From Octopus sinensis (lineage: Eukaryota): 64,000 nucleotides of DNA. Under the pieces are notes generated by a model that was not told where the DNA came from, did no database searches, and saw only the letters and a program-made list of their open reading frames with translations. Below are positions 7,521 through 40,689 of this stretch, piece by piece. How positions within the stretch are numbered: the first letter of the stretch is position 1; every line of letters starts with the position of its first letter. Location of the stretch: the NCBI RefSeq assembly GCF_006345805.1, contig NC_043007.1, positions 20,708,001-20,772,000 of the forward strand. The letters are read 5' to 3'. The translations under genes and the position numbers were made by a program.

Positions 7521-8059
7521 GATTTTTTATTAGTGCCCCATCAACCCATTCAGTTAGCTGTATATTTTTACAATAGGCTGACGTTGTAGCAGTTTGTTCA
7601 TTATGAGACATTTTAGCACGGCCATTTTAGCCTTGCCTGTTTGACATCATTGATTCGATGCTGCCTTATTTGACATCAGGTGATTTAATGTTCCTCCCTT
7701 TTTCCCTACTCCCTCTCTCTTGCTTCCCCTTTCTCCTCCTCTCCCCTTCTCCCCTCTTTCTTTCTTCCTTCTCTCTTTCTCTCCTCTTTCTTTCTCTTCC
7801 TCTTTCTTTCTCTCTCTTTCTCCCCTCTCTCTTTCACCCCCTCTCTCTTTCTCCCTCCCTCTCTTTCTCCCCCTCTCCCTTCGTCCCACTAAAATTTAAG
7901 GCCTTGTGTCTATAACAGAAAGGATTATTTCCTATACCCTCTGTTGGGGAAAGGAGGAGTGAAGGCCGAGGAAAGAAGGGCTTTGCTATTAAAATGAATA
8001 AAATGAAAAATGACATAAATATTTAACTGTTTTCTTATACATATTTATTTATTTTCCAG

Positions 8060-8361
8060 GTGCTTACAAAACTCATCTTTTCACCTTGAGACTCGACCTA
8101 GGACCCCACGATGAAATACCCGACTCCCTTGAGATGGTCAGCGATGTGAAGTTTACCATGCCAGCTAGCACTGTTTCCAAATGTCAGATTCGATCAATAT
8201 CATGTGGCAATCCCACCCCACCGGAGAAATGGGTCCGCTATATAGCCCACTACAATTATAAGGTTGCTATTGAGCACACACTTGAAGGGAGTATCCAAAA
8301 CGTACCTGAAATTGATGTCCAAATGGCAGCGGAAGGAAACGACTCCGAATCCGATTCGTAG
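8060..8361 (+). CDS. stnB: Stonin / protein stoned-B, last coding exon (C-terminus of the mu-homology domain)
   Basis: Acceptor ttttccag at 8059; reads (G)AYKTHLFTLRLDLGPHDEIPD...VKFTMPASTVSKCQIRSIS...PEKWVRYIAHYNYKVAIE, resembling the stoned-B/stonin-2 C-terminus; TAG ends at 8361. Confidence 0.85.
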
Positions 8362-31378: not shown

Positions 31379-31942
31379 TTGACAAATTTTTCCATTTTGT
31401 AAGAGTAATTTACCCAATATTTCTCCTGTTCTGACAGCGATTCTGCATTTGAAAATAAATTATCATCCTAATTCTATCTTACAATAAAACATTTCGACGC
31501 TTATAGATTTCTTTATTGGCCACGCAGGGCTAGACACAGAAGGGACAAAATACAAAGTAGAGCTTTTCTTTTTGGGAACAAGAGAAGGGGGTAAAAAAGG
31601 GGAGGGCGAATTCCAGTCTAAAGGGATCGTGAAAAAAAAGGGGGTGCGAATTTCAATCAAAAGGGATCGTGAAAAAAAAAGAGGGGGATTCCGATCAAAA
31701 GGGATCGTGGAAAAAAAAAGAAAAAAAGCTGGGCCGATCAATAGGGATCGTGTATAAAAAAAACGAATGTTAGTTTCTTTAAATTTATAAATATGTAAGT
31801 TTTTTTTGTTCACTTTTATTTTTTTCTGAATTTCTTTTTGCCCTTATTTAAAAAAATTTAACGACATCTTGCTTTTATTTATTTATTAATTAATATTTTT
31901 TTTTTTTTTTTGCAGCTCCTTTTTTCATTTTTCATTTTAACC

Positions 31943-34900
31943 ATGGTAGGAGTGAAGAGAACACCTAAATCAAGTAAGAAAATCCCTAAAGAAGCAAAAG
32001 AAGTAACTACTAAAAAAAGAATATGTAAAGATACAGAAAACGAGAAAAATACTGAATGTTTGTTTTTAAAACCTGAAGTGAATTTTAATGATTCCAATGA
32101 TTTTAAAACTCCTGAGAGGAAAATTGGTACCGGCAGATCTAGACTCCGTAACCAAATTGATTATGTAAGACTTAACGATCCTCAGAAAAAGGACTATTCT
32201 TTAATTAGAAAAAACGCAAAACAGAGTATATCAGCAAACACTTCCGTCGAATCTGTGAGCGTAACTCCTCCAGAAAGTTCCAGGAAACGTGCAAGAAAAT
32301 CTTCCCAGACCAAAAATGAAGATTCACATTTGCAAAATGTTACCCCATCTCCGAAACCTGAAAAAATTCATTTATCTCAGCCAAAATCTGTTAAACCTCC
32401 GAGTAAGCAACTTAAGGAGAGCAAAAACAAAGTAAATTCCAAATCAAAGACCTCAGATTTTGGTAAAAAGTTTCTTGAAGAAAAGTCTTTATGTAATACC
32501 CTGACTCAACAAATTTCCAAGTCTAGATTGCCAAAAAGTCAAAATTTGTTTGATTTGATTCAAAGTTCAGATAATAATGCTTCTTTTTCTGGCACCACAA
32601 TCTGCAAAAGTCCTTGTGACCCCTTGGAAATTGTGGAAAAAGGAAACTCTTCTTTCATTTCAGGTGAGCAGTCTGAAATATCTAATAGCAGCGGAACTTA
32701 CTTGCGAAATAGGAGAAAAATTAGTTATAAATTCAATATCAAAGAATCCAGAAAATGTGTTCCCACTGTTACATCTTCACATGTCTCCTCTGTTTCATCT
32801 TCACATGTCCTCTCTGTTACATCTTCACATGCCACCTCTGTTACATCTTCACATGACCTCTCTGTTACATCTTCCTGTATCCCTTCTGTTACATCTTCAT
32901 ATGCCCCCTCTGTTATGTCTTCACATGTCCCCCCTGTTATGTCTTCACATGTCCCCTCTGTTGCATCTTCACATATCCCTTCTGTTACATTTTCACATAT
33001 CCCTAATGTTTCATCTTCAATTGTCCATTTTGTTACATCTTCACATGTCTCCACTATTACATCTTCACATATTTCCCCGTTTACATCTTCACATGTCCCC
33101 ACTATTACATCTTCACATATTTCCCCGTTTACATCTTCACATGTCCCCATTGAAACAGCTTCACGTGTCCCTCTTGTTACATCTTCACATGTCCCCATTG
33201 AAACAGCTTCACGTGTCCCTCTTGTTACATCTTCACATGTCCCCATTGAAACAGCTTCACGTGTCCCTCTTGTTACATCTTCACATGTCCCCACCGGAAC
33301 ATCTTCACATGTCTTCACTGAAGTATCTTCACACATTCCTAATGTTACATCTTCACATATCTCCAATGGGACCTCTTCACATGTCTTTTCTGTTACACCT
33401 TCACATGTCCCCGCCGAAGCAGATTCACACTTTTCTACAGTTACATCTCCCCTTGTTTATGCTATTACATCTCCAATTGCTCCCACAGAAACAGGATTTG
33501 ACCATGGACAAAATAAACTGAAATTAGACAATGATTTTACTGAAGTACAAATGAAGGTGTGTCCTACATGCAAAGATGATTTTCCTGTTCTATTATTCGA
33601 AGAGCATGTACTACAATGTCTCAAGGAACAATTTCAGTCATCCAGCCACAAGCCATTTGACAATAAAACAAAACACAGCCAAATATCCCAAGATGAAATA
33701 TTAGCCCATAAGTTGCATGAAGAACTGAACGAAAATGCCTTGACAACTAACGACTCTCCAGAATCTGACAAAATCCTGTGTTGTATATGTAAAACAGATT
33801 TGACCTGCTTGAATTCATTACACAGAACTCAGCATATCAACACATGTATTGACCAGGCAGAAAATGCAAAAGCTCCCCCTGACACTCTAACACAATCTGT
33901 AGTCATTTGTCCTATGTGTGGGCAGCAGTTTAAGTCTTTTTCTTTAAGAGAGATGCATTTCAAAAGCTGTGGAAGGGATAAATTTATTGCACCTGGACAG
34001 CACGTTATTGCAAATGTCCATGGTGAACCCAGCAGATTGACCACAAACAAAAGGCAGCCAAAGAATAGAAAAACATCCAAGTCTAAAAAAGCTCCTGATG
34101 ATCAGCTTGAGCTAGCGCTAGCCATGTCTAATTCTCTTCAAGAAGAACAAAACAAACAGGAAGAGCAATTAAGTCGGTGTATCCAGAATATAAAAAAAGA
34201 AGTTTTGAAAGAGTTAAAAAATCAGAAAAACAAACAACTTCCGTTGTTAGTTACGTTATCGGATGAAGAGCGCCAAGAATGCAATGCCGGAAAAGTTGCT
34301 AATATTATGAACGAAAATTTTGAAAATGTTTCCTTAAGTAAAAGGCATAAACATAGTTCTTTAGTTTCAACAGAACCTTCCAATCTATGGCTAAAATCTT
34401 CGCTAACTCAGGCAGATTCTTCAAAACTTCCATTCTATGTGAATTCATTGATGCCCCCCATTGAAATGGATGTTTTAAATGTAGGAAGTCGATTGAAACA
34501 TTTATCTAGAAACACTGAAAGTGTTATTAATCGAAATACAACTGATTCTGCTGATAAAGAAACGGATGAGCAACCAGTAGCGCCAAGCCAAACTGCTCTT
34601 ATCTTAGCTGAGCTGGCCAATGACGATGAACCTACAAATGGTTCTATGCACAATCCTGTCGAAGATGAGTCACCAAATGTTCAAAAAGAAACGAATGAAG
34701 AACGTTCAACAGGTTTACTTACATCTTTAAGTTCAGACCTTTGTCAGTTAGTCAACAACTCTAGTTTTAGTGATGTTCAGTTTATGACAGCTGACGGAAC
34801 TAAAGTTTTTGGACATAAAATAATTCTCCAAATCAGATGCCCCAATATTTTAAACAGAGTCTCTACTCATCTTGAGACACCCACAGTTCATCTGAGCGAA

Positions 34901-37900
34901 GTATCTCATGATCTGTTAATAGTGCTTCTGAAGTATATTTATGCAGGGCAGTTAAATATAGATGAAACTCAAGCAAACAACTTAAGGATGCTCTCCCAGG
35001 AGCTTGAAATGCCTGAATTATTTCAAGCCTGTGAGAAAATATCAAAAACCAGTGTAAATCATAACCAACAAAGTTCAGATTTTTATCCATCTCCTTTAAA
35101 AACAGTTGATAGTATGATTGATTATTTGCTTGAAAGCTCAGATGACGATGTTGACAACAGAAATATTTGCCCAGAAAATCCAAGCTGTGATTATAAAATA
35201 TTAGATAGAGAGGAACAACCTCAAAATTCTCAGAATGACGACCAGTCTACTGTAACAAAAGATTCTGCCGAATTTCAAAATCCCACAAATTCCTCTCCAA
35301 ATGTTATCTCACCTTCTTCGAAAGTTTTGGAAAAATCATTAAATGGATATTCTGGTGATAATGGAAGCAATTTGGATTATTTGTCAAATGTGCCTGTTTC
35401 TTCTCAACTTGGATCATCTGCTCAGTTACCTGAAATAAACTGTGACAATCAGCCAAACGAACCACAATCTAATTACAATACTGATCCTTTATCCACTGAT
35501 AAAACTGACAATAACCCTTGTGATGTTGTGATGACACTGCAAAAGTCTCCATCCGACTTAACATCCTCACAGAACACACCTCATCCACCAGAGGCTGAAA
35601 AAGGTTTCGTGCTAAATAAAAATGTGCTTCCATCATTCACATCCACTTTGCCTGTTTCTACTAATTTAACTGATAACAGCAATAATAACTCTGATAATAA
35701 AGAGCAACACCAATTAAATAATGCTGAATTAATTGAAGATTTTTCTCCAATTCATTTTGAGGACGAATCTTTTAACAATTCTCCTGAGACAAAATCTAAT
35801 TGTGATGATATTGCAACACCCGAAAAGGACAACCTTCACAACAACAGGGAAAATGTATTAAGTTTAAGTGATGATCTGTCAAACATGTCCAAAGAATTAT
35901 TTAGTGACGAAGAGCTAGAAACTGCAGAAAACAACAAGACCAGTATCCAGAATAGTTTTCATAACCAACATGAATTCACATTGTCTCATCAAATAGTGGA
36001 AAATATATTTCCTTGCCATAAAGAAAATAAACCAGGCATTTCAGAACCTAGCTTTTCTAGTCATGAAATTGTCTCCTTAACTAAAGACAGCGACCAAATA
36101 AATAATAGTCCAAATGTAGATAATAACGTTGCAGATAATCCAGTTTGTAGGATTATTTATACATCTCGGTCTTTGACGTCTGCTGATGGATCAAACAAAG
36201 AACTGACTGTTCCTCTGTCTCTTCCTACAGAGACTAATTGTAATTTAGGAGAAAAATTTGGTTTTCTAAATTCTCCTGCTCCAGTTTTTCCAAAAACACA
36301 AGAAGTCAAGGACATAAATAAAAACCTGAATGATGATCAACCAGAGACTTTTTCTCAAAACCAAAATAGAAAAAGAAAACAAAGTTCTCTGTCCTGTTCA
36401 CCTTTAAACAGGAAGAAAACTAAGAAGGATCTTGAAACGGAAGGGAACAGTCATTTAACTTTATATAAGAGAAGTTCTCCAATTTTAGACTCAGACAATT
36501 CAAAGTTAGATACAAGCAAAGAGGTGCAGTTTTCACCAATCAATTCATTAAATTCGTCTGTTAATTTATGTAACGAGAGTGGCAGCAATGAAGTATACAC
36601 AGTAAAATCTGAAACGAGTATTATTACAGTTTTTAATGACAGCTATGAAAATACGCATCAGTTTAAAAATGAGAGTGATCTTGATATAAGTAAGGAGGCA
36701 TATGGGGACATTTCTGAGATAAATAATCTGCAAATAAGCCCTAAACAATCTAATGACGCTGAGTCAAATAGGGAATCCATTGGAAGTGCGTCTCCTGAAA
36801 AGAATTCGAGTTATGAAAATGATAGAGAAATATATGAAGAAAGTTTCTTTGCTGATGATATGAATGAAACAACTTATGGGAAAGCCCATTTTAGTGTATT
36901 AAATAGTTTTATCCAGGATAATCCTGACTTGTATAAAAAAATACTTGAGTATGAGCCAGTCGATTTTGGTGTTTTGAAGAAAAGACTTGGAGAATCTAAT
37001 ATAAAATGCTCAAATAAAAAACTGCTTGAATATCTTGAGAATCAGTGTATAACATTTATTTTGGAGAAAAATAAACGAAGTAGAAAGTCTTGCTCACCGC
37101 AGAAAAGAAAAACTGTTAAGGAAAACCTTAACCTAGAGGCAAGTAGTAATTTAGAAACAGTGGCAAGGGTGGAGGAATCATCAGAGAAATGTTCATTAAA
37201 TTCATCTTTTAATATTTCCGATGAGTTGTATAATGATGAAGACAGGAAAACTAAACAGTTTGATGGTGATGTTACCAATGAAGCTGAAACGGCAGATTTA
37301 AAGAAACTTTCCCCAAACATCTCGAATGATTTCTGTTCCACCAAAGAACACCAAGTGGAACCATCTGAAAAACCAAAGAAGAGATTTGTATTCAAAAAGA
37401 TTACGGCAAAATCCATAATTTGCAGTTCAACAGGAAACAAAAGTGTGGATGTTGGAAATCCTGACTCCCTTGTGAAATCGTTTACTGGACCATCAGCTTC
37501 TGATAAAAAAATTACAAACTGTGAAAACCTTCAGTCAAATCATAATGTCACCAATGACGTCTGGGGACAATTTTCTGATGATAATTTTGATGATATGGTA
37601 CCATTCTCCCCAGTACCTTCACATTCCAATGTTAATTTGAACTCCAGTAAAGATAAACTAGATTTACCTCCTGCAGCTGAACAAAACCTTGCTCCCTCTT
37701 CATCACATGATTGTTCTTACACAAGTATGATGGAAGATATAAAAAACTTGTCATGTCTGGGATCGGAATTAAATTGTACTTTATCTGATTCATTTGAAAA
37801 TATTGATCTGAAGGGTAATCCTGAAGCAAAATTTCAAACCCCAGCAAACTATCGTGAAAAAGAGCAAAGTATTCTTTCGCCCTTTACCCCAATGCCGGAT

Positions 37901-38509
37901 TACGATAAAATGACCACACCAGGCCTGAAAAAAGAGATGAAGAAATACGGTTGCAAAGCAAGACCTAAGAAGAATATGATAAAGGTTCTTAAAGACATCT
38001 TTATCAGAACTCATCAGTATAAAAGCGATAGTGAACACGACACGAGTAGGGATACAATTAAGGAAATCTCTGAGACGAACAGATTCCAAGTAAGCTCCCC
38101 AGAACCCAAGGATCCTAAGACTGATAAAGAATCAGCTGAGAGTATATCTCCTATAAATATTTCAAGTTTTGAAAATGATGGAGTGGTTATATATGAAGAA
38201 AATTATATTGCTAATGAGGCAGAAGAAGTAATGAGCAGTCAGCAGGCGAATGGAGAAATACTTTTTAGTAAAGTAAATGCTTTTATCCAAACTAATCCTG
38301 ACTTCTATAGAAAAGTACTTCAGTACGAACCTCTTGATTTTGATGTTTTGAAGAAGACTCTTGAAGAGTCCAATATAAAATGCCCTGCTAATAAACTGCT
38401 GGAATATCTAGATAACCAGTGTATAACATTTGTTCTGAATAAAGATAAACAAACTAAGAGAAAACCACAAAGGGGGACTGGCAGACCGAGGAGAGGAAAG
38501 AAAGTTTGA
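31943..38509 (+). CDS. SLX4: Structure-specific endonuclease scaffold SLX4 (BTBD12/FANCP)-like, 2188 aa, single coding exon
   Basis: Acceptor (t)n-gcag at 31915; ATG in accATGg at 31943; three C2HC UBZ-like fingers; DDQLELALAMSNSL; BTB (SDVQF...GHKIILQIRCP...LLKYIYAG); SAP-like TPMPDYDKMTTPGLKKEMKKYG; C-terminal FYRKVLQYEPLDF...LLEYLDNQCITF (SLX1-binding domain). Confidence 0.93.
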   Translation: MVGVKRTPKSSKKIPKEAKEVTTKKRICKDTENEKNTECLFLKPEVNFNDSNDFKTPERKIGTGRSRLRNQIDYVRLNDPQKKDYSLIRKNAKQSISANTSVESVSVTPPESSRKRARKSSQTKNEDSHLQNVTPSPKPEKIHLSQPKSVKPPSKQLKESKNKVNSKSKTSDFGKKFLEEKSLCNTLTQQISKSRLPKSQNLFDLIQSSDNNASFSGTTICKSPCDPLEIVEKGNSSFISGEQSEISNSSGTYLRNRRKISYKFNIKESRKCVPTVTSSHVSSVSSSHVLSVTSSHATSVTSSHDLSVTSSCIPSVTSSYAPSVMSSHVPPVMSSHVPSVASSHIPSVTFSHIPNVSSSIVHFVTSSHVSTITSSHISPFTSSHVPTITSSHISPFTSSHVPIETASRVPLVTSSHVPIETASRVPLVTSSHVPIETASRVPLVTSSHVPTGTSSHVFTEVSSHIPNVTSSHISNGTSSHVFSVTPSHVPAEADSHFSTVTSPLVYAITSPIAPTETGFDHGQNKLKLDNDFTEVQMKVCPTCKDDFPVLLFEEHVLQCLKEQFQSSSHKPFDNKTKHSQISQDEILAHKLHEELNENALTTNDSPESDKILCCICKTDLTCLNSLHRTQHINTCIDQAENAKAPPDTLTQSVVICPMCGQQFKSFSLREMHFKSCGRDKFIAPGQHVIANVHGEPSRLTTNKRQPKNRKTSKSKKAPDDQLELALAMSNSLQEEQNKQEEQLSRCIQNIKKEVLKELKNQKNKQLPLLVTLSDEERQECNAGKVANIMNENFENVSLSKRHKHSSLVSTEPSNLWLKSSLTQADSSKLPFYVNSLMPPIEMDVLNVGSRLKHLSRNTESVINRNTTDSADKETDEQPVAPSQTALILAELANDDEPTNGSMHNPVEDESPNVQKETNEERSTGLLTSLSSDLCQLVNNSSFSDVQFMTADGTKVFGHKIILQIRCPNILNRVSTHLETPTVHLSEVSHDLLIVLLKYIYAGQLNIDETQANNLRMLSQELEMPELFQACEKISKTSVNHNQQSSDFYPSPLKTVDSMIDYLLESSDDDVDNRNICPENPSCDYKILDREEQPQNSQNDDQSTVTKDSAEFQNPTNSSPNVISPSSKVLEKSLNGYSGDNGSNLDYLSNVPVSSQLGSSAQLPEINCDNQPNEPQSNYNTDPLSTDKTDNNPCDVVMTLQKSPSDLTSSQNTPHPPEAEKGFVLNKNVLPSFTSTLPVSTNLTDNSNNNSDNKEQHQLNNAELIEDFSPIHFEDESFNNSPETKSNCDDIATPEKDNLHNNRENVLSLSDDLSNMSKELFSDEELETAENNKTSIQNSFHNQHEFTLSHQIVENIFPCHKENKPGISEPSFSSHEIVSLTKDSDQINNSPNVDNNVADNPVCRIIYTSRSLTSADGSNKELTVPLSLPTETNCNLGEKFGFLNSPAPVFPKTQEVKDINKNLNDDQPETFSQNQNRKRKQSSLSCSPLNRKKTKKDLETEGNSHLTLYKRSSPILDSDNSKLDTSKEVQFSPINSLNSSVNLCNESGSNEVYTVKSETSIITVFNDSYENTHQFKNESDLDISKEAYGDISEINNLQISPKQSNDAESNRESIGSASPEKNSSYENDREIYEESFFADDMNETTYGKAHFSVLNSFIQDNPDLYKKILEYEPVDFGVLKKRLGESNIKCSNKKLLEYLENQCITFILEKNKRSRKSCSPQKRKTVKENLNLEASSNLETVARVEESSEKCSLNSSFNISDELYNDEDRKTKQFDGDVTNEAETADLKKLSPNISNDFCSTKEHQVEPSEKPKKRFVFKKITAKSIICSSTGNKSVDVGNPDSLVKSFTGPSASDKKITNCENLQSNHNVTNDVWGQFSDDNFDDMVPFSPVPSHSNVNLNSSKDKLDLPPAAEQNLAPSSSHDCSYTSMMEDIKNLSCLGSELNCTLSDSFENIDLKGNPEAKFQTPANYREKEQSILSPFTPMPDYDKMTTPGLKKEMKKYGCKARPKKNMIKVLKDIFIRTHQYKSDSEHDTSRDTIKEISETNRFQVSSPEPKDPKTDKESAESISPINISSFENDGVVIYEENYIANEAEEVMSSQQANGEILFSKVNAFIQTNPDFYRKVLQYEPLDFDVLKKTLEESNIKCPANKLLEYLDNQCITFVLNKDKQTKRKPQRGTGRPRRGKKV
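32766..33475 (+). repeat. In-frame 33-bp coding minisatellite (11-aa unit, VTSSHVPS-like) in SLX4
   Basis: gttacatcttcacatgtccc recurs about 20 times, including 66-bp higher-order dimers (IETASRVPLVTSSHVP x3). Confidence 0.92.
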
Positions 38510-38803
38510 TTTGGCTTCCATGAAATCATTTTCTCATAAAATCTGTAAATTCTTCCACCACTTATTTTTTTTTTGTATTTATTTAATGTTTTTGGAATGT
38601 TGTTTTAGGAATGTATTAATTTTTGTATATAAACAAAGATTCCACATTTACTAACGTGACAACTCTAATTTATTTACATTTTTATTTTTTACTATTTCAG
38701 AGTAAACAGGTCTAGAGATATATTTTTTTTATTACTAATGCTACTTCAAAATCAGCTCATCCGTTTTCTATTTACATATGAATACATACATACATACATA
38801 CAC

Positions 38804-38859
<56 letters not shown>

Positions 38860-38920
38860 TATATAAGAAATTAAAAAAGGAAAATACACACACTTCCATG
38901 GTTTTAATATAATTTTTAAT

Positions 38921-38956
38921 ATATCGACCGGTTTCGCTATCGCTATTCATGATAAT
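38921..38956 (-). ncRNA. Candidate minimal hammerhead ribozyme, A3-U8 core variant (left arm)
   Basis: Minus: UAUC-AUGAAUA-GC(GAUA)GC-GAAAC-CG-GUC-GAUA. Confidence 0.55.
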
Positions 38957-39137
38957 ATGTTTTACTTATTTGAATATATGTTTTTTCTTAAGAAGAAATT
39001 TTGTCCATGTTGTGTGTGATGAAATTCACGAGTGAATTTATCTACTTGTGAAGTCATTCACTCGTGAATTTCATCACACACAACATGGACAAAATTTCTT
39101 CTTAAGAAAAAATATATATTCAAATAAGTAAAACATA

Positions 39138-39172
39138 ATATCATGAATAGCGATAGTGAAACCGGTCGATAT
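39138..39172 (+). ncRNA. Candidate minimal hammerhead ribozyme, A3-U8 core variant (right arm)
   Basis: AUAUC-AUGAAUA-GC(GAUA)GU-GAAAC-CG-GUC-GAUAU; 5-bp stem I, palindromic ACCGGU stem III, predicted cut after 39167. Confidence 0.55.
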
Positions 39173-39311
39173 ATTAAAAATTATATTAAAACTATGTGTG
39201 TGTGTGTATTTTCCTTTTTAATTTCTTATATACATTACAATTCACCACGTGGGGATAATCGGAATTCCTCTTTTCCATTACTGCATATATATATATGTGT
39301 ATATTATATAA

Positions 39312-39353
<42 letters not shown>

Positions 39354-39684
39354 TAGATAGATAGATACAGTTTCGTTACAATTGTGTTAAGGTATATTGT
39401 TGAAAATGTATTTTTAATATTACTTGCAATAAAATTTCAGTATTAAACACTGGTGACATGTTACATTAAATGAATCATAATAAACCTAATTGTAGAATTA
39501 GAACATCACGGAGCCAAATGAGACTTGACCATTTTGGTTGCTTTACCATTTGTACAGAAGACACCAGGTATAAAGCTAGGTTGTTCAATAAGTATTGTCC
39601 TCACAAATGGATAGGATTTGCCATTATAGTTGGATCTTTTAGGCCAGTGAACGTTCTCTGATCTTTTGATAATGATGATGATGA

Positions 39685-40195: not shown

Positions 40196-40360
40196 AAACA
40201 TTGTGTGATATCTGTTTTCCATGCTGACATCTGTCTGTCTGTCTATCTATCTATCTATCCATCTAGCTATCTATCCAACCATCCATCCATCTATCTATCT
40301 ATCTATCCAACCATCCATCCATCTATCTATCTATCTATCTATCTATCCAACCATCCATCC

Positions 40361-40406
<46 letters not shown>

Positions 40407-40689
40407 ATCTATCTATCTATCTATTCATCTATTCATCTATCCATGTATCTATCTATCCATCTATCCATCCATCCATCCATTAATCCCTCCATCCGCCTGT
40501 CCGTCTACCTATCTATCTATCTATCTATCTATATATCCATCCATCTATTTATCTATCTGTCTATCCCTCCTTCCACCCACCTCTCTCTCTGAAGTAAATT
40601 GCATTTTAGATACTGGATATTATTTTTTAAAATAAAATAATAATACTGGAGCATCTCTTGCTTCAGGCTCATAATCAGGTAAACTACTG

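Follow-up and report, generated by a model that had tools for sequence, protein, structure and literature searches.

A second, internal CCD in octopod SLX4 as a candidate dock for SLX1

The nuclease SLX1 is promiscuous, and it depends for its stability and activity on one CCD per SLX4 chain. Metazoan SLX4 (also FANCP or BTBD12; human, mouse, Xenopus) combines a zinc-finger-like region, a BTB domain, a long disordered region, a SAP and a terminal CCD, and the available text of PMC4407285 places SLX1 binding at the extreme SLX4 C-terminus in all organisms studied. We analysed a 64,000-nucleotide stretch of Octopus sinensis DNA (the window) in which the SLX4 gene appears to show the same order of parts. 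Its plus-strand frame is open throughout 31862-38509, and the ATG at 31943 begins a product of 2188 aa with the metazoan SLX4 hallmarks, a BTB domain and a C-terminal CCD (Pfam Slx4, PF09494, 55.5 bits against a cut-off of 24.8) whose Cys is common to metazoan SLX4 (mouse C1536). It differs from the human, mouse and Xenopus proteins in having an additional CCD, which lies ~270 aa before the SAP, and in a coding sequence that forms one uninterrupted frame. The features are as follows.

31943..38509, plus strand: SLX4 coding sequence, 2188 aa in a single uninterrupted frame; the exact protein clusters with Octopus sinensis LOC115217132 isoforms
32758..33412, plus strand: 24-nt tandem array, 27 copies, encoding TSSHV-type repeats
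33560..33970, plus strand: three Cys/His clusters with invariant C/H, likely UBZ-type zinc fingers (a putative label, because Pfam zf_UBZ, E 0.23, is under cut-off)
34745..35050, plus strand: BTB domain (Pfam PF00651, E 2.2e-12)
36368..36599, plus strand: segment A, putative start of duplication unit 1, with a basic RKRK...SCSP...KK motif and an SLNSS motif; matches 37065-37244
36569..36877, plus strand: SAP-end remnant and SAP-CCD linker of unit 1, from the DNA self-match (paralog dN/dS 0.68); alignment of the initial ~30 nt needs a 1-nt gap, which puts them out of frame relative to the SAP
36878..37078, plus strand: internal CCD/SBD (CCD1), aa 1646-1712; Pfam Slx4 52.6 bits, predicted CCD fold, constrained
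37065..37244, plus strand: segment A-prime, putative start of duplication unit 2; matches segment A
37245..37873, plus strand: segment B, a putatively ancestral disordered region absent from unit 1, with KKxFxFKK and DVWxxF motifs common to cuttlefish-like SLX4
37874..38023, plus strand: intact SAP region, aa 1978-2027, a likely MUS81/DNA-binding module judged by octopod conservation and residue spacing
38252..38452, plus strand: terminal canonical CCD/SBD (CCD2), aa 2104-2170; Pfam Slx4 55.5 bits

Two CCD domains in one chain and their distribution

The initial annotation had proposed two SLX1-binding domains in this protein and had predicted two matches in a Pfam Slx4 scan. Both were borne out: PF09494 matched two stretches of the whole protein, and the halves scored separately gave 52.6 and 55.5 bits, with the motifs NSFIQDNP and NAFIQTNP starting at 36902 and 38276. 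CCD1 and CCD2 share 44/67 residues and are separated by a ~390-aa spacer. The proposed upstream extension to the end of the SAP (IITVFND at 36620 versus MIKVLKD at 37976) was likewise recovered in a DNA self-match of 36598-37082 with 37954-38456 (68.6% identity, E 1e-50), which looser scoring extends to 36569/37926. As also suggested, the first copy is without most of the SAP; the intact SAP sits between CCD1 and CCD2. This SAP region is identical at 43-49 of 50 residues among octopods and strongly conserved with other mollusc SLX4s, with a Pfam SAP match under cut-off (E 0.061). The spacing of its Y1987/L1995/E1998/M1999 fits that of mouse Y1340/L1348/E1351/L1352 (PMC3808987), a correspondence drawn from spacing.

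Both CCDs were present in all five octopod species or lineages retrieved (O. sinensis, O. vulgaris, O. bimaculoides, one further octopod and Argonauta hians; records window/P0002/P0010, P0003, P0004, P0005 and P0009). The closest outgroup consists of two full-length, cuttlefish-like decapodiform SLX4s, P0014 (~90% identical to Acanthosepion pharaonis BTBD12) and P0188, in which the motifs flanking the insert are colinear and which have a single, terminal CCD each. The duplication was not common across invertebrates: among the best 150 of 281 representatives, reduced to 148 by dropping P0100 and P0146, which have no CCD, only 1/148 carried it. A single CCD was found in the other 147, among them 77/77 non-octopod proteins of at least 1000 aa. 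Two further two-CCD candidates, P0030 and P0113, had one CCD each on re-scan. A CCD-profile search of proteins of 119-2000 aa returned only P0187 and P0013, which are uninformative on CCD1: the former, a cuttlefish model, has nothing that corresponds to P0014 1057-1729 and its CCD is truncated, and the latter begins downstream of the insert site. A metagenome scan yielded one locus, L001, ending before any CCD. No full-length SLX4 was identified for squids, bobtails, nautilus, vampire squid or cirrates.

In a CCD tree, all eight octopod CCDs formed one group (support 88/85), within which octopodid CCD1s had a group of their own (100/98). The Argonauta copies, with a long CCD1 branch (1.6), were left unplaced; both a single CCD1 group (p-AU 0.09) and a duplication confined to Argonauta (p-AU 0.14) escaped rejection.

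Origin of the internal copy

Similarity had also been thought to run on from CCD1 into a basic C-terminal tail. That part did not stand: the sequence after 37080 had no match to the tail or the 3' UTR (shuffle p 0.16), and 37065-37244 instead matches 36368-36599, upstream of CCD1, with a score reached by 0/2000 codon shuffles. The score of this A/A-prime match was 81.5, against a best of 63 among 192 other windows of the coding sequence, and a protein-level match was seen in 3/4 species tested, being absent in Argonauta (p 0.21). From these alignments, we take the basic stretch after CCD1 to be the tandem-duplication junction, that is, the start of unit 2, and the tail homology to be a misreading. 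We also weighed retro-insertion of a 3' mRNA fragment and rejected it on the same missing tail and 3' UTR match; the A/A-prime direct repeats favour tandem duplication over it.

The internal copy thus likely originated in a ~1.4-kb in-exon tandem duplication. A unit comprising A, B, SAP, linker and CCD would have been duplicated head to tail after the octopod/decapodiform split, and unit 1 would later have lost ~0.7 kb in frame, consisting of B and the first part of the SAP. A remnant of the SAP N-terminus sought upstream of the internal copy was not found (p 0.81). This exon expands repeatedly, as seen in the 24-nt array, a 264-nt duplication in sequencing runs X14/X19 and the O. vulgaris model, and Argonauta-specific repeats.

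Constraint, fold and SLX1 interface of CCD1

Compared with flanking disordered sequence, CCD1 was more conserved in O. bimaculoides (55/58 versus 711/839 positions, p 0.019) and Argonauta (28/55 versus 239/720, p 0.007); the difference in P0004 (49/58 versus 624/831, p 0.068) was not significant. An HMM built from non-cephalopod CCDs scored CCD1 at 88.3 bits, CCD2 at 93.1 and the cuttlefish-like domain at 87.2. Neutral decay simulated under a simple mutation model from present-day CCD2 gave medians of 59-26 bits at 0.15-0.35 substitutions per site, and at most 1/1000 runs reached 88.3. The octopodid CCD1s align without gaps. Neutral evolution of the internal copy, which would have undermined the original proposal, is thus contradicted by both comparisons (simulation P <=0.001), and the internal CCD has remained under purifying selection. 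For the CCD core, paralog dN/dS is 0.35; its interval (0.13-0.84) is so wide that this value alone cannot show constraint on both copies. The dS between CCDs (0.50-0.51) is similar to that of the linker (0.66), indicating no recent gene conversion. The sequencing runs showed 21 non-synonymous and 18 synonymous differences in all, of which only one, synonymous, fell in CCD1; these are too few to use.

CCD1 is predicted to adopt the helical CCD fold. The model, built on an alignment of CCDs, has four called helices and pLDDT 81-90 over residues 11-70. The top nine Foldseek rows were all Slx4 CCD chains, all with E-values above 0.001; VIA gave Z 8.4-11.4 against Slx4 CCD structures and 4.8 for the next fold. 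A two-sequence profile searched against PDB sequences found no Slx4 chain, and wider profiles recovered them only at E 0.016-0.38. Against fungal Slx1-Slx4(CCD) complexes (PDB 4XLG, 7CQ2-4, 4ZDT, 6SEH/6SEI), the model superposes with an rmsd of 1.6-4.9 A over 64-69 residues, although sequence identity is only 12-22%.

All 15 near-invariant columns are canonical in CCD2 and 14/15 in Octopus CCD1, including Tyr at Sc Phe705/Cg Phe681, Pro, and Cys at the mouse C1536 position; in the fungal complexes, the contacts Phe705/Phe681 and Gly716 correspond to this Tyr and to a Cys of CCD1. The L-x-Y-x-P contact motif (Sc Tyr703/Phe705) and the Cys are present in 4/4 octopodid CCD1 records. The same four records carry Glu for Asp in a column that is D143, N1, Q1 and E0 among 145 background domains and that maps, from structural ranges, to Sc Asp737, which is hydrogen-bonded to SLX1 His92. 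This Asp, replaced conservatively in octopodids, is kept in Argonauta CCD1. There, YEP is changed to NES (N for Y against a background of Y136/F8/H1 and N0; S for P against P141 and S0), together with T>A and F>Y, and the hydrophobic core is intact. Argonauta CCD1 scores 71 bits with the non-cephalopod HMM, against a background 5th percentile of 75. Judged by these residues, CCD1 is probably a weaker SLX1 site than CCD2, and Argonauta CCD1 has probably lost most SLX1 binding.

Explanations for a retained second CCD

We think it rather probable, from sequence comparison and modelling, that the octopod internal CCD is an old in-exon duplication selectively kept as an auxiliary, SAP-less dock for a second SLX1. 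One scaffold chain would then likely hold two SLX1 molecules, as predicted, and MUS81 docking would remain single, via the one intact SAP. According to PMC13171448, stimulation of SLX1 does not require the SAP in human SLX4, so that a metazoan CCD can function without one. CCD1, without a preceding SAP, differs in this from the budding yeast arrangement, where SAP loss lowers SLX1 activity and accuracy (as described in the available part of PMC8287910). SLX4 also homodimerises through its BTB (PMC8599992, available text), and thus an ordinary metazoan SLX4 is likely already able to carry two SLX1; two SLX1 per complex is not in itself new.

Selection on a fold leaves its binding partner unnamed, and CCD1 may be kept as a fold that takes up SLX1 weakly or without activating it, in the manner of a buffer or decoy, or that has another partner. 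We regard this as unlikely. In its favour, both sampled octopod branches changed SLX1-contact columns of CCD1, at different places (Asp>Glu in 4/4 octopodids, YEP>NES in Argonauta), and the Argonauta domain stays conserved above its flanks (p 0.007) despite missing the pocket-filling aromatic. However, Asp>Glu is conservative, Octopus retains the L-x-Y-E-P hydrophobic contact and the Cys, and the available literature extracts name no other CCD partner. The interface also tolerates change, since even the C1753R change in Xenopus still allowed SLX1 to be co-precipitated (PMC6411836, in the part available). A stronger form of the docking idea, in which octopod SLX4 is bivalent, with two active SLX1 flanking the single SAP/MUS81 site for paired-nick HJ/cruciform resolution or for SAP-uncontrolled nicking outside mitosis, seems doubtful. 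Still less probable is cooperation of two SLX1 heads on one chain as a MUS81-independent resolvase placing paired nicks across a Holliday junction. With ~390 aa, the spacer could reach across a junction, and At-HIGLE, a plant SLX1-lineage nuclease, is an active homodimer whose two joined SLX1-type active sites make coordinated HJ nicks, but it offers analogy only, as it dimerises by its own C-terminal region without SLX4 (available text of PMC9071465). Moreover, most of the spacer is disordered and its sequence varies (identity is 71-80% within octopodids and 36% with Argonauta), so that it fixes no geometry between the CCDs; conservation is high in the SAP, which holds the likely MUS81-binding residues, BTB dimerisation already supplies two CCDs in other animals, and the Argonauta copy looks degraded.

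The repeated expansion of the exon (24-nt array, 264-nt duplication, Argonauta repeats) and the long Argonauta CCD1 branch would suit a passenger that is in slow decay or owes its upkeep to gene conversion by CCD2. This is very improbable given the neutral simulation, an inter-CCD dS near that of the linker, and the separate, gap-free octopodid CCD1 group. An assembly artefact, or splicing of the segment out of the mRNA, is scarcely credible. None of the 24 sequencing runs is recorded as RNA, so that their contigs are silent on expression, and the gene models are automatic. Against this, the copies are just 68% identical and turn up in five independent records, nothing interrupts the open frame, and both CCDs are in 3/3 isoform records, so that the database models all retain the segment whose splicing out had been raised as a possible objection. 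In 4/4 runs examined (of 24), a single contig bridges both CCDs with no CCD1-skipping joint, a comparison in which contigs drop rare forms.

Kept as an auxiliary dock, a second CCD that has no SAP to itself would be a natural test of whether SLX1 dose or valency is limiting on the scaffold, and octopod CCD1 one of the need for the SAP in metazoan SLX1 activation. Each of the two natural variants, Asp>Glu in Octopus and the lost Y-x-P of Argonauta, addresses one half of the interface, and octopod SLX4 would offer a natural test of MUS81-free junction resolution by two tethered SLX1. The effect may be purely quantitative, because SLX4 already dimerises; if true, a bivalent octopod SLX4 would be a natural rewiring of the SLX-MUS resolvase.

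SLX4 gene and its Slx4 domains

The window encodes an SLX4 protein with a BTB domain and two Pfam stretches of the SLX1-binding Slx4 domain (CCD; PF09494), an internal copy (CCD1) and a terminal one (CCD2).

Features of SLX4 and of its duplicated block

31862-38509, + strand: SLX4 open frame, a single frame
31943 (ATG) to 38509, + strand: SLX4 CDS by translation, 2188 aa
36368-36599, + strand: segment A, just before the duplicated block; matches A-prime
36878-37078, + strand: CCD1, aa 1646-1712 (Pfam Slx4)
37065-37244, + strand: segment A-prime, directly after CCD1; matches A
38252-38452, + strand: CCD2, aa 2104-2170 (Pfam Slx4)

When the halves of SLX4 were scanned separately, they gave Slx4 scores of 52.6 and 55.5 bits, both above the Pfam cut-off of 24.8 bits. 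The two SLX1-binding domains proposed in the initial annotation were thus recovered, and its SLX4 peptides were located where it had placed them. CCD1 and CCD2 are identical at 44 of 67 residues, and at the DNA level 36598-37082 matches 37954-38456 with 68.6% identity (E 1e-50). The exact protein is present in the protein collection and clusters with the isoforms of Octopus sinensis LOC115217132.

The whole coding stretch (31917-38509) is an uninterrupted 6.6-kb frame following a splice-acceptor-like site (a polypyrimidine tract ending in GCAG at about 31916), unlike a metagenome locus from another animal, where SAP and BTB matches are separated by intron-like gaps. Vertebrate SLX4 is multi-exon; the one-frame CDS could possibly reflect intron loss or a retrogene origin in cephalopods. 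Upstream on the same strand is a stoned-B-like (mu-homology domain) gene, with its last coding exon at 8059-8358. An O. vulgaris model (P0009, 4293 aa) joins this gene to SLX4, which is likely an annotation join or read-through. In the initial annotation, a second SLX1 site might alter junction resolution in a microsatellite-rich genome; the window does contain AT and ATCT arrays. Such microsatellites lie directly 3' of SLX4 (38782-38865, 39285-39367 and 40229-40565), and by eye the sequence between two AT arrays (38870-39230) forms a long inverted repeat, as of a small non-autonomous element.

Distribution and origin of the internal domain

Two CCDs were found in O. sinensis (3/3 isoform records), O. 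vulgaris (P0009), O. bimaculoides (P0003), a further octopod (P0004) and Argonauta hians (P0005). When 1.84 billion representatives were searched with a profile, 281 matched, and the best 150 of these were examined. A CCD was present in 148 of the 150 on re-scanning, and the duplication, which the initial annotation had allowed might prove common across invertebrates, was seen in one of these 148, the octopus representative. All 77 non-octopod proteins of at least 1000 aa in this set carried one CCD; single-CCD rows include Babylonia, Patella, Gigantopelta, Mytilus, Mizuhopecten, Branchiostoma, Penaeus and vertebrates. The nearest outgroup is a cuttlefish-like protein of 2071 aa (P0014) that shares about 90% identity with Acanthosepion pharaonis BTBD12. 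Both this protein and its relative P0188 possess a single, terminal CCD and have in common with octopod SLX4 a set of colinear motifs flanking the octopod insert on either side; the decapodiform sample is thin, comprising these two full-length sequences. Within the sample, two-CCD SLX4 is restricted to the octopod lineage.

In a tree of 18 CCDs, each taken with 45 upstream residues, all eight octopod CCDs formed one group (88/85) adjoining the two decapodiform-like sequences. Among octopodids, CCD1 and CCD2 formed distinct groups (100/98 and 100/99), and both Argonauta copies lacked firm placement. Topology tests gave p-AU 0.09 for one CCD1 group and 0.14 for an Argonauta-only pair. A single origin of octopod CCD1 is unproved by the tree, but the Argonauta copy lies between the same anchor motifs and resembles the others in its downstream flank.

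Segments A and A-prime matched with a score of 81.5, reached by none of 2000 codon shuffles; the best of 192 other CDS windows scored 63. At the protein level the match was found in three of four species (p <=0.0005) and was absent in the fourth, Argonauta (p 0.21). Neither the C-terminal tail nor the 3' UTR was matched by the sequence after CCD1 (p 0.16). The A/A-prime match and the tandem-unit order indicate that the "basic tail" initially annotated after CCD1 is A-prime, not a copy of the C-terminal tail. The observed order (A, SAP-end, linker, CCD, A-prime, disordered segment B, SAP, linker, CCD) is that expected if a unit of about 1.4 kb (37065-38456) had been duplicated head to tail, provided that unit 1 (36368-37064) afterwards lost about 0.7 kb, made up of B and the start of SAP. 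Mouse SLX4 Y1340, L1348, E1351 and L1352 are described as required for MUS81 binding (PMC3808987); the octopus SAP equivalents matched by spacing, Y1987, L1995, E1998 and M1999, lie in unit 2 only.

The SLX4 exon is prone to duplication and expansion. A 24-nt array of 27 copies (32758-33412) encodes Ser/Thr/His-rich TSSHV repeats and varies in length among octopods. Isoforms P0002 and P0010, which are 16 and 32 aa shorter than the complete protein, may be mapping artefacts because they first differ inside this array. A 264-nt (88-aa) tandem duplication in a disordered region at 35574-35837, present in sequencing runs X14 and X19 and in O. vulgaris P0009 and absent from the window, is a recent case of the same kind of event. 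Argonauta hians P0005 has repeats of its own, VCN-type heptads before SAP (aa ~1760-1850).

Constraint and contact residues of CCD1

Over a 58-codon core, CCD1 and CCD2 differ with dS 0.50, dN 0.18 and omega 0.35, and their linkers with dS 0.66, dN 0.45 and omega 0.68. The dN/dS of the core, a check suggested in the initial annotation, falls below 1, but with a bootstrap interval of 0.13-0.84 it is by itself weak evidence of constraint. Identity between species was higher in CCD1 than in disordered flanks in three comparisons: 55/58 versus 711/839 (p 0.019), 49/58 versus 624/831 (p 0.068) and 28/55 versus 239/720 (p 0.007). Against a reference HMM of 145 non-cephalopod domains (background quartile 89), Octopus CCD1 scored 88.3 bits, CCD2 93.1 and the cuttlefish-like domain 87.2. 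Simulated neutral decay from CCD2 over 0.15-0.35 substitutions per site (1000 runs) gave medians of 59-26 bits, and the retention of 14 of 15 near-invariant columns had P 0.056 at the lowest distance and 0.001-0.015 at higher ones. CCD1 is constrained.

The predicted CCD1 model (pLDDT 81-90, residues 11-70) retrieved only Slx4 CCD chains among its top nine Foldseek rows (probability 0.90-1.00, E above 0.001). Realignment gave Z 8.4-11.4 and rmsd 1.6-4.9 A over 64-69 residues, the next fold reaching Z 4.8. Mapping from the ends of the aligned ranges, which assumes no local gaps, would equate the CCD1 Cys with Cg Gly716, Tyr with Sc Phe705 and Glu with Sc Asp737 (Cg and Sc being fungal SLX4 numberings). 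Gly716 has been equated with mouse C1536 (PMC4407285), and Asp737 hydrogen-bonds SLX1 His92 (PMC8287910). Octopodid CCD1 retains the hydrophobic motif and Cys and has Glu at the Asp column (background Asp 143/145, Glu 0/145). Argonauta CCD1 (P0005 aa 1468-1533; 71 bits) retains Asp and replaces near-invariant Y by N and P by S, each 0/145 in the background; its Y-x-P motif is lost and its hydrophobic core intact. It is mainly these substitutions that speak against CCD1 as a fully canonical second site.

A probable second SLX1 site and its alternatives

We think it probable that CCD1 would dock a second SLX1. The fungal CCD is reported to break an inhibitory SLX1 homodimer (PMC4407285), and the mouse CCD to be needed for SLX1 stability (PMC3808987). 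Because human SAP is reported not to be needed for SLX1 stimulation (PMC13171448), a SAP-less site could function in an animal; yeast SAP is described as required for accurate cutting (PMC8287910). It is unlikely, although the contact-residue substitutions point that way, that CCD1 is instead a weak or decoy SLX1 site or a site for a new partner. Paired SLX1 nicking, in analogy to what is described for At-HIGLE (PMC9071465), would be quite improbable.

That CCD1 is a decaying passenger is slightly more improbable still: its neutral evolution, which by the initial annotation would refute the proposal, conflicts with the simulation, where at most 1 of 1000 runs attained 88.3 bits. Recent gene conversion does not account for the conservation either, because CCD dS is similar to linker dS. 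An artefact or spliced-out segment is scarcely credible, as in each of the four runs (of 24 listed) compared over 33500-38760 one contig spans both CCDs and no joint skipping CCD1 was found; these contigs represent sequence in other samples, not expression, because no run was recorded as RNA.

In full-text literature searches covering few subscription journals, no title or abstract opening reports a two-CCD octopus or cephalopod SLX4, either among the papers listed for SLX4 in octopus or cephalopods or among the 20 listed of 634 on domain architecture. The double Pfam match may be visible in domain databases because it is derivable directly from public records. The SLX4 scaffold itself is known; what is new is a variant with a second, internal CCD, which is real, old and conserved in octopods and whose function we infer. 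As SLX4 homodimerises via BTB (PMC8599992 and PMC6411836), docking of a second SLX1 by CCD1 would likely change the number of SLX1 sites from two to four per SLX4 dimer, rather than from one to two per complex.
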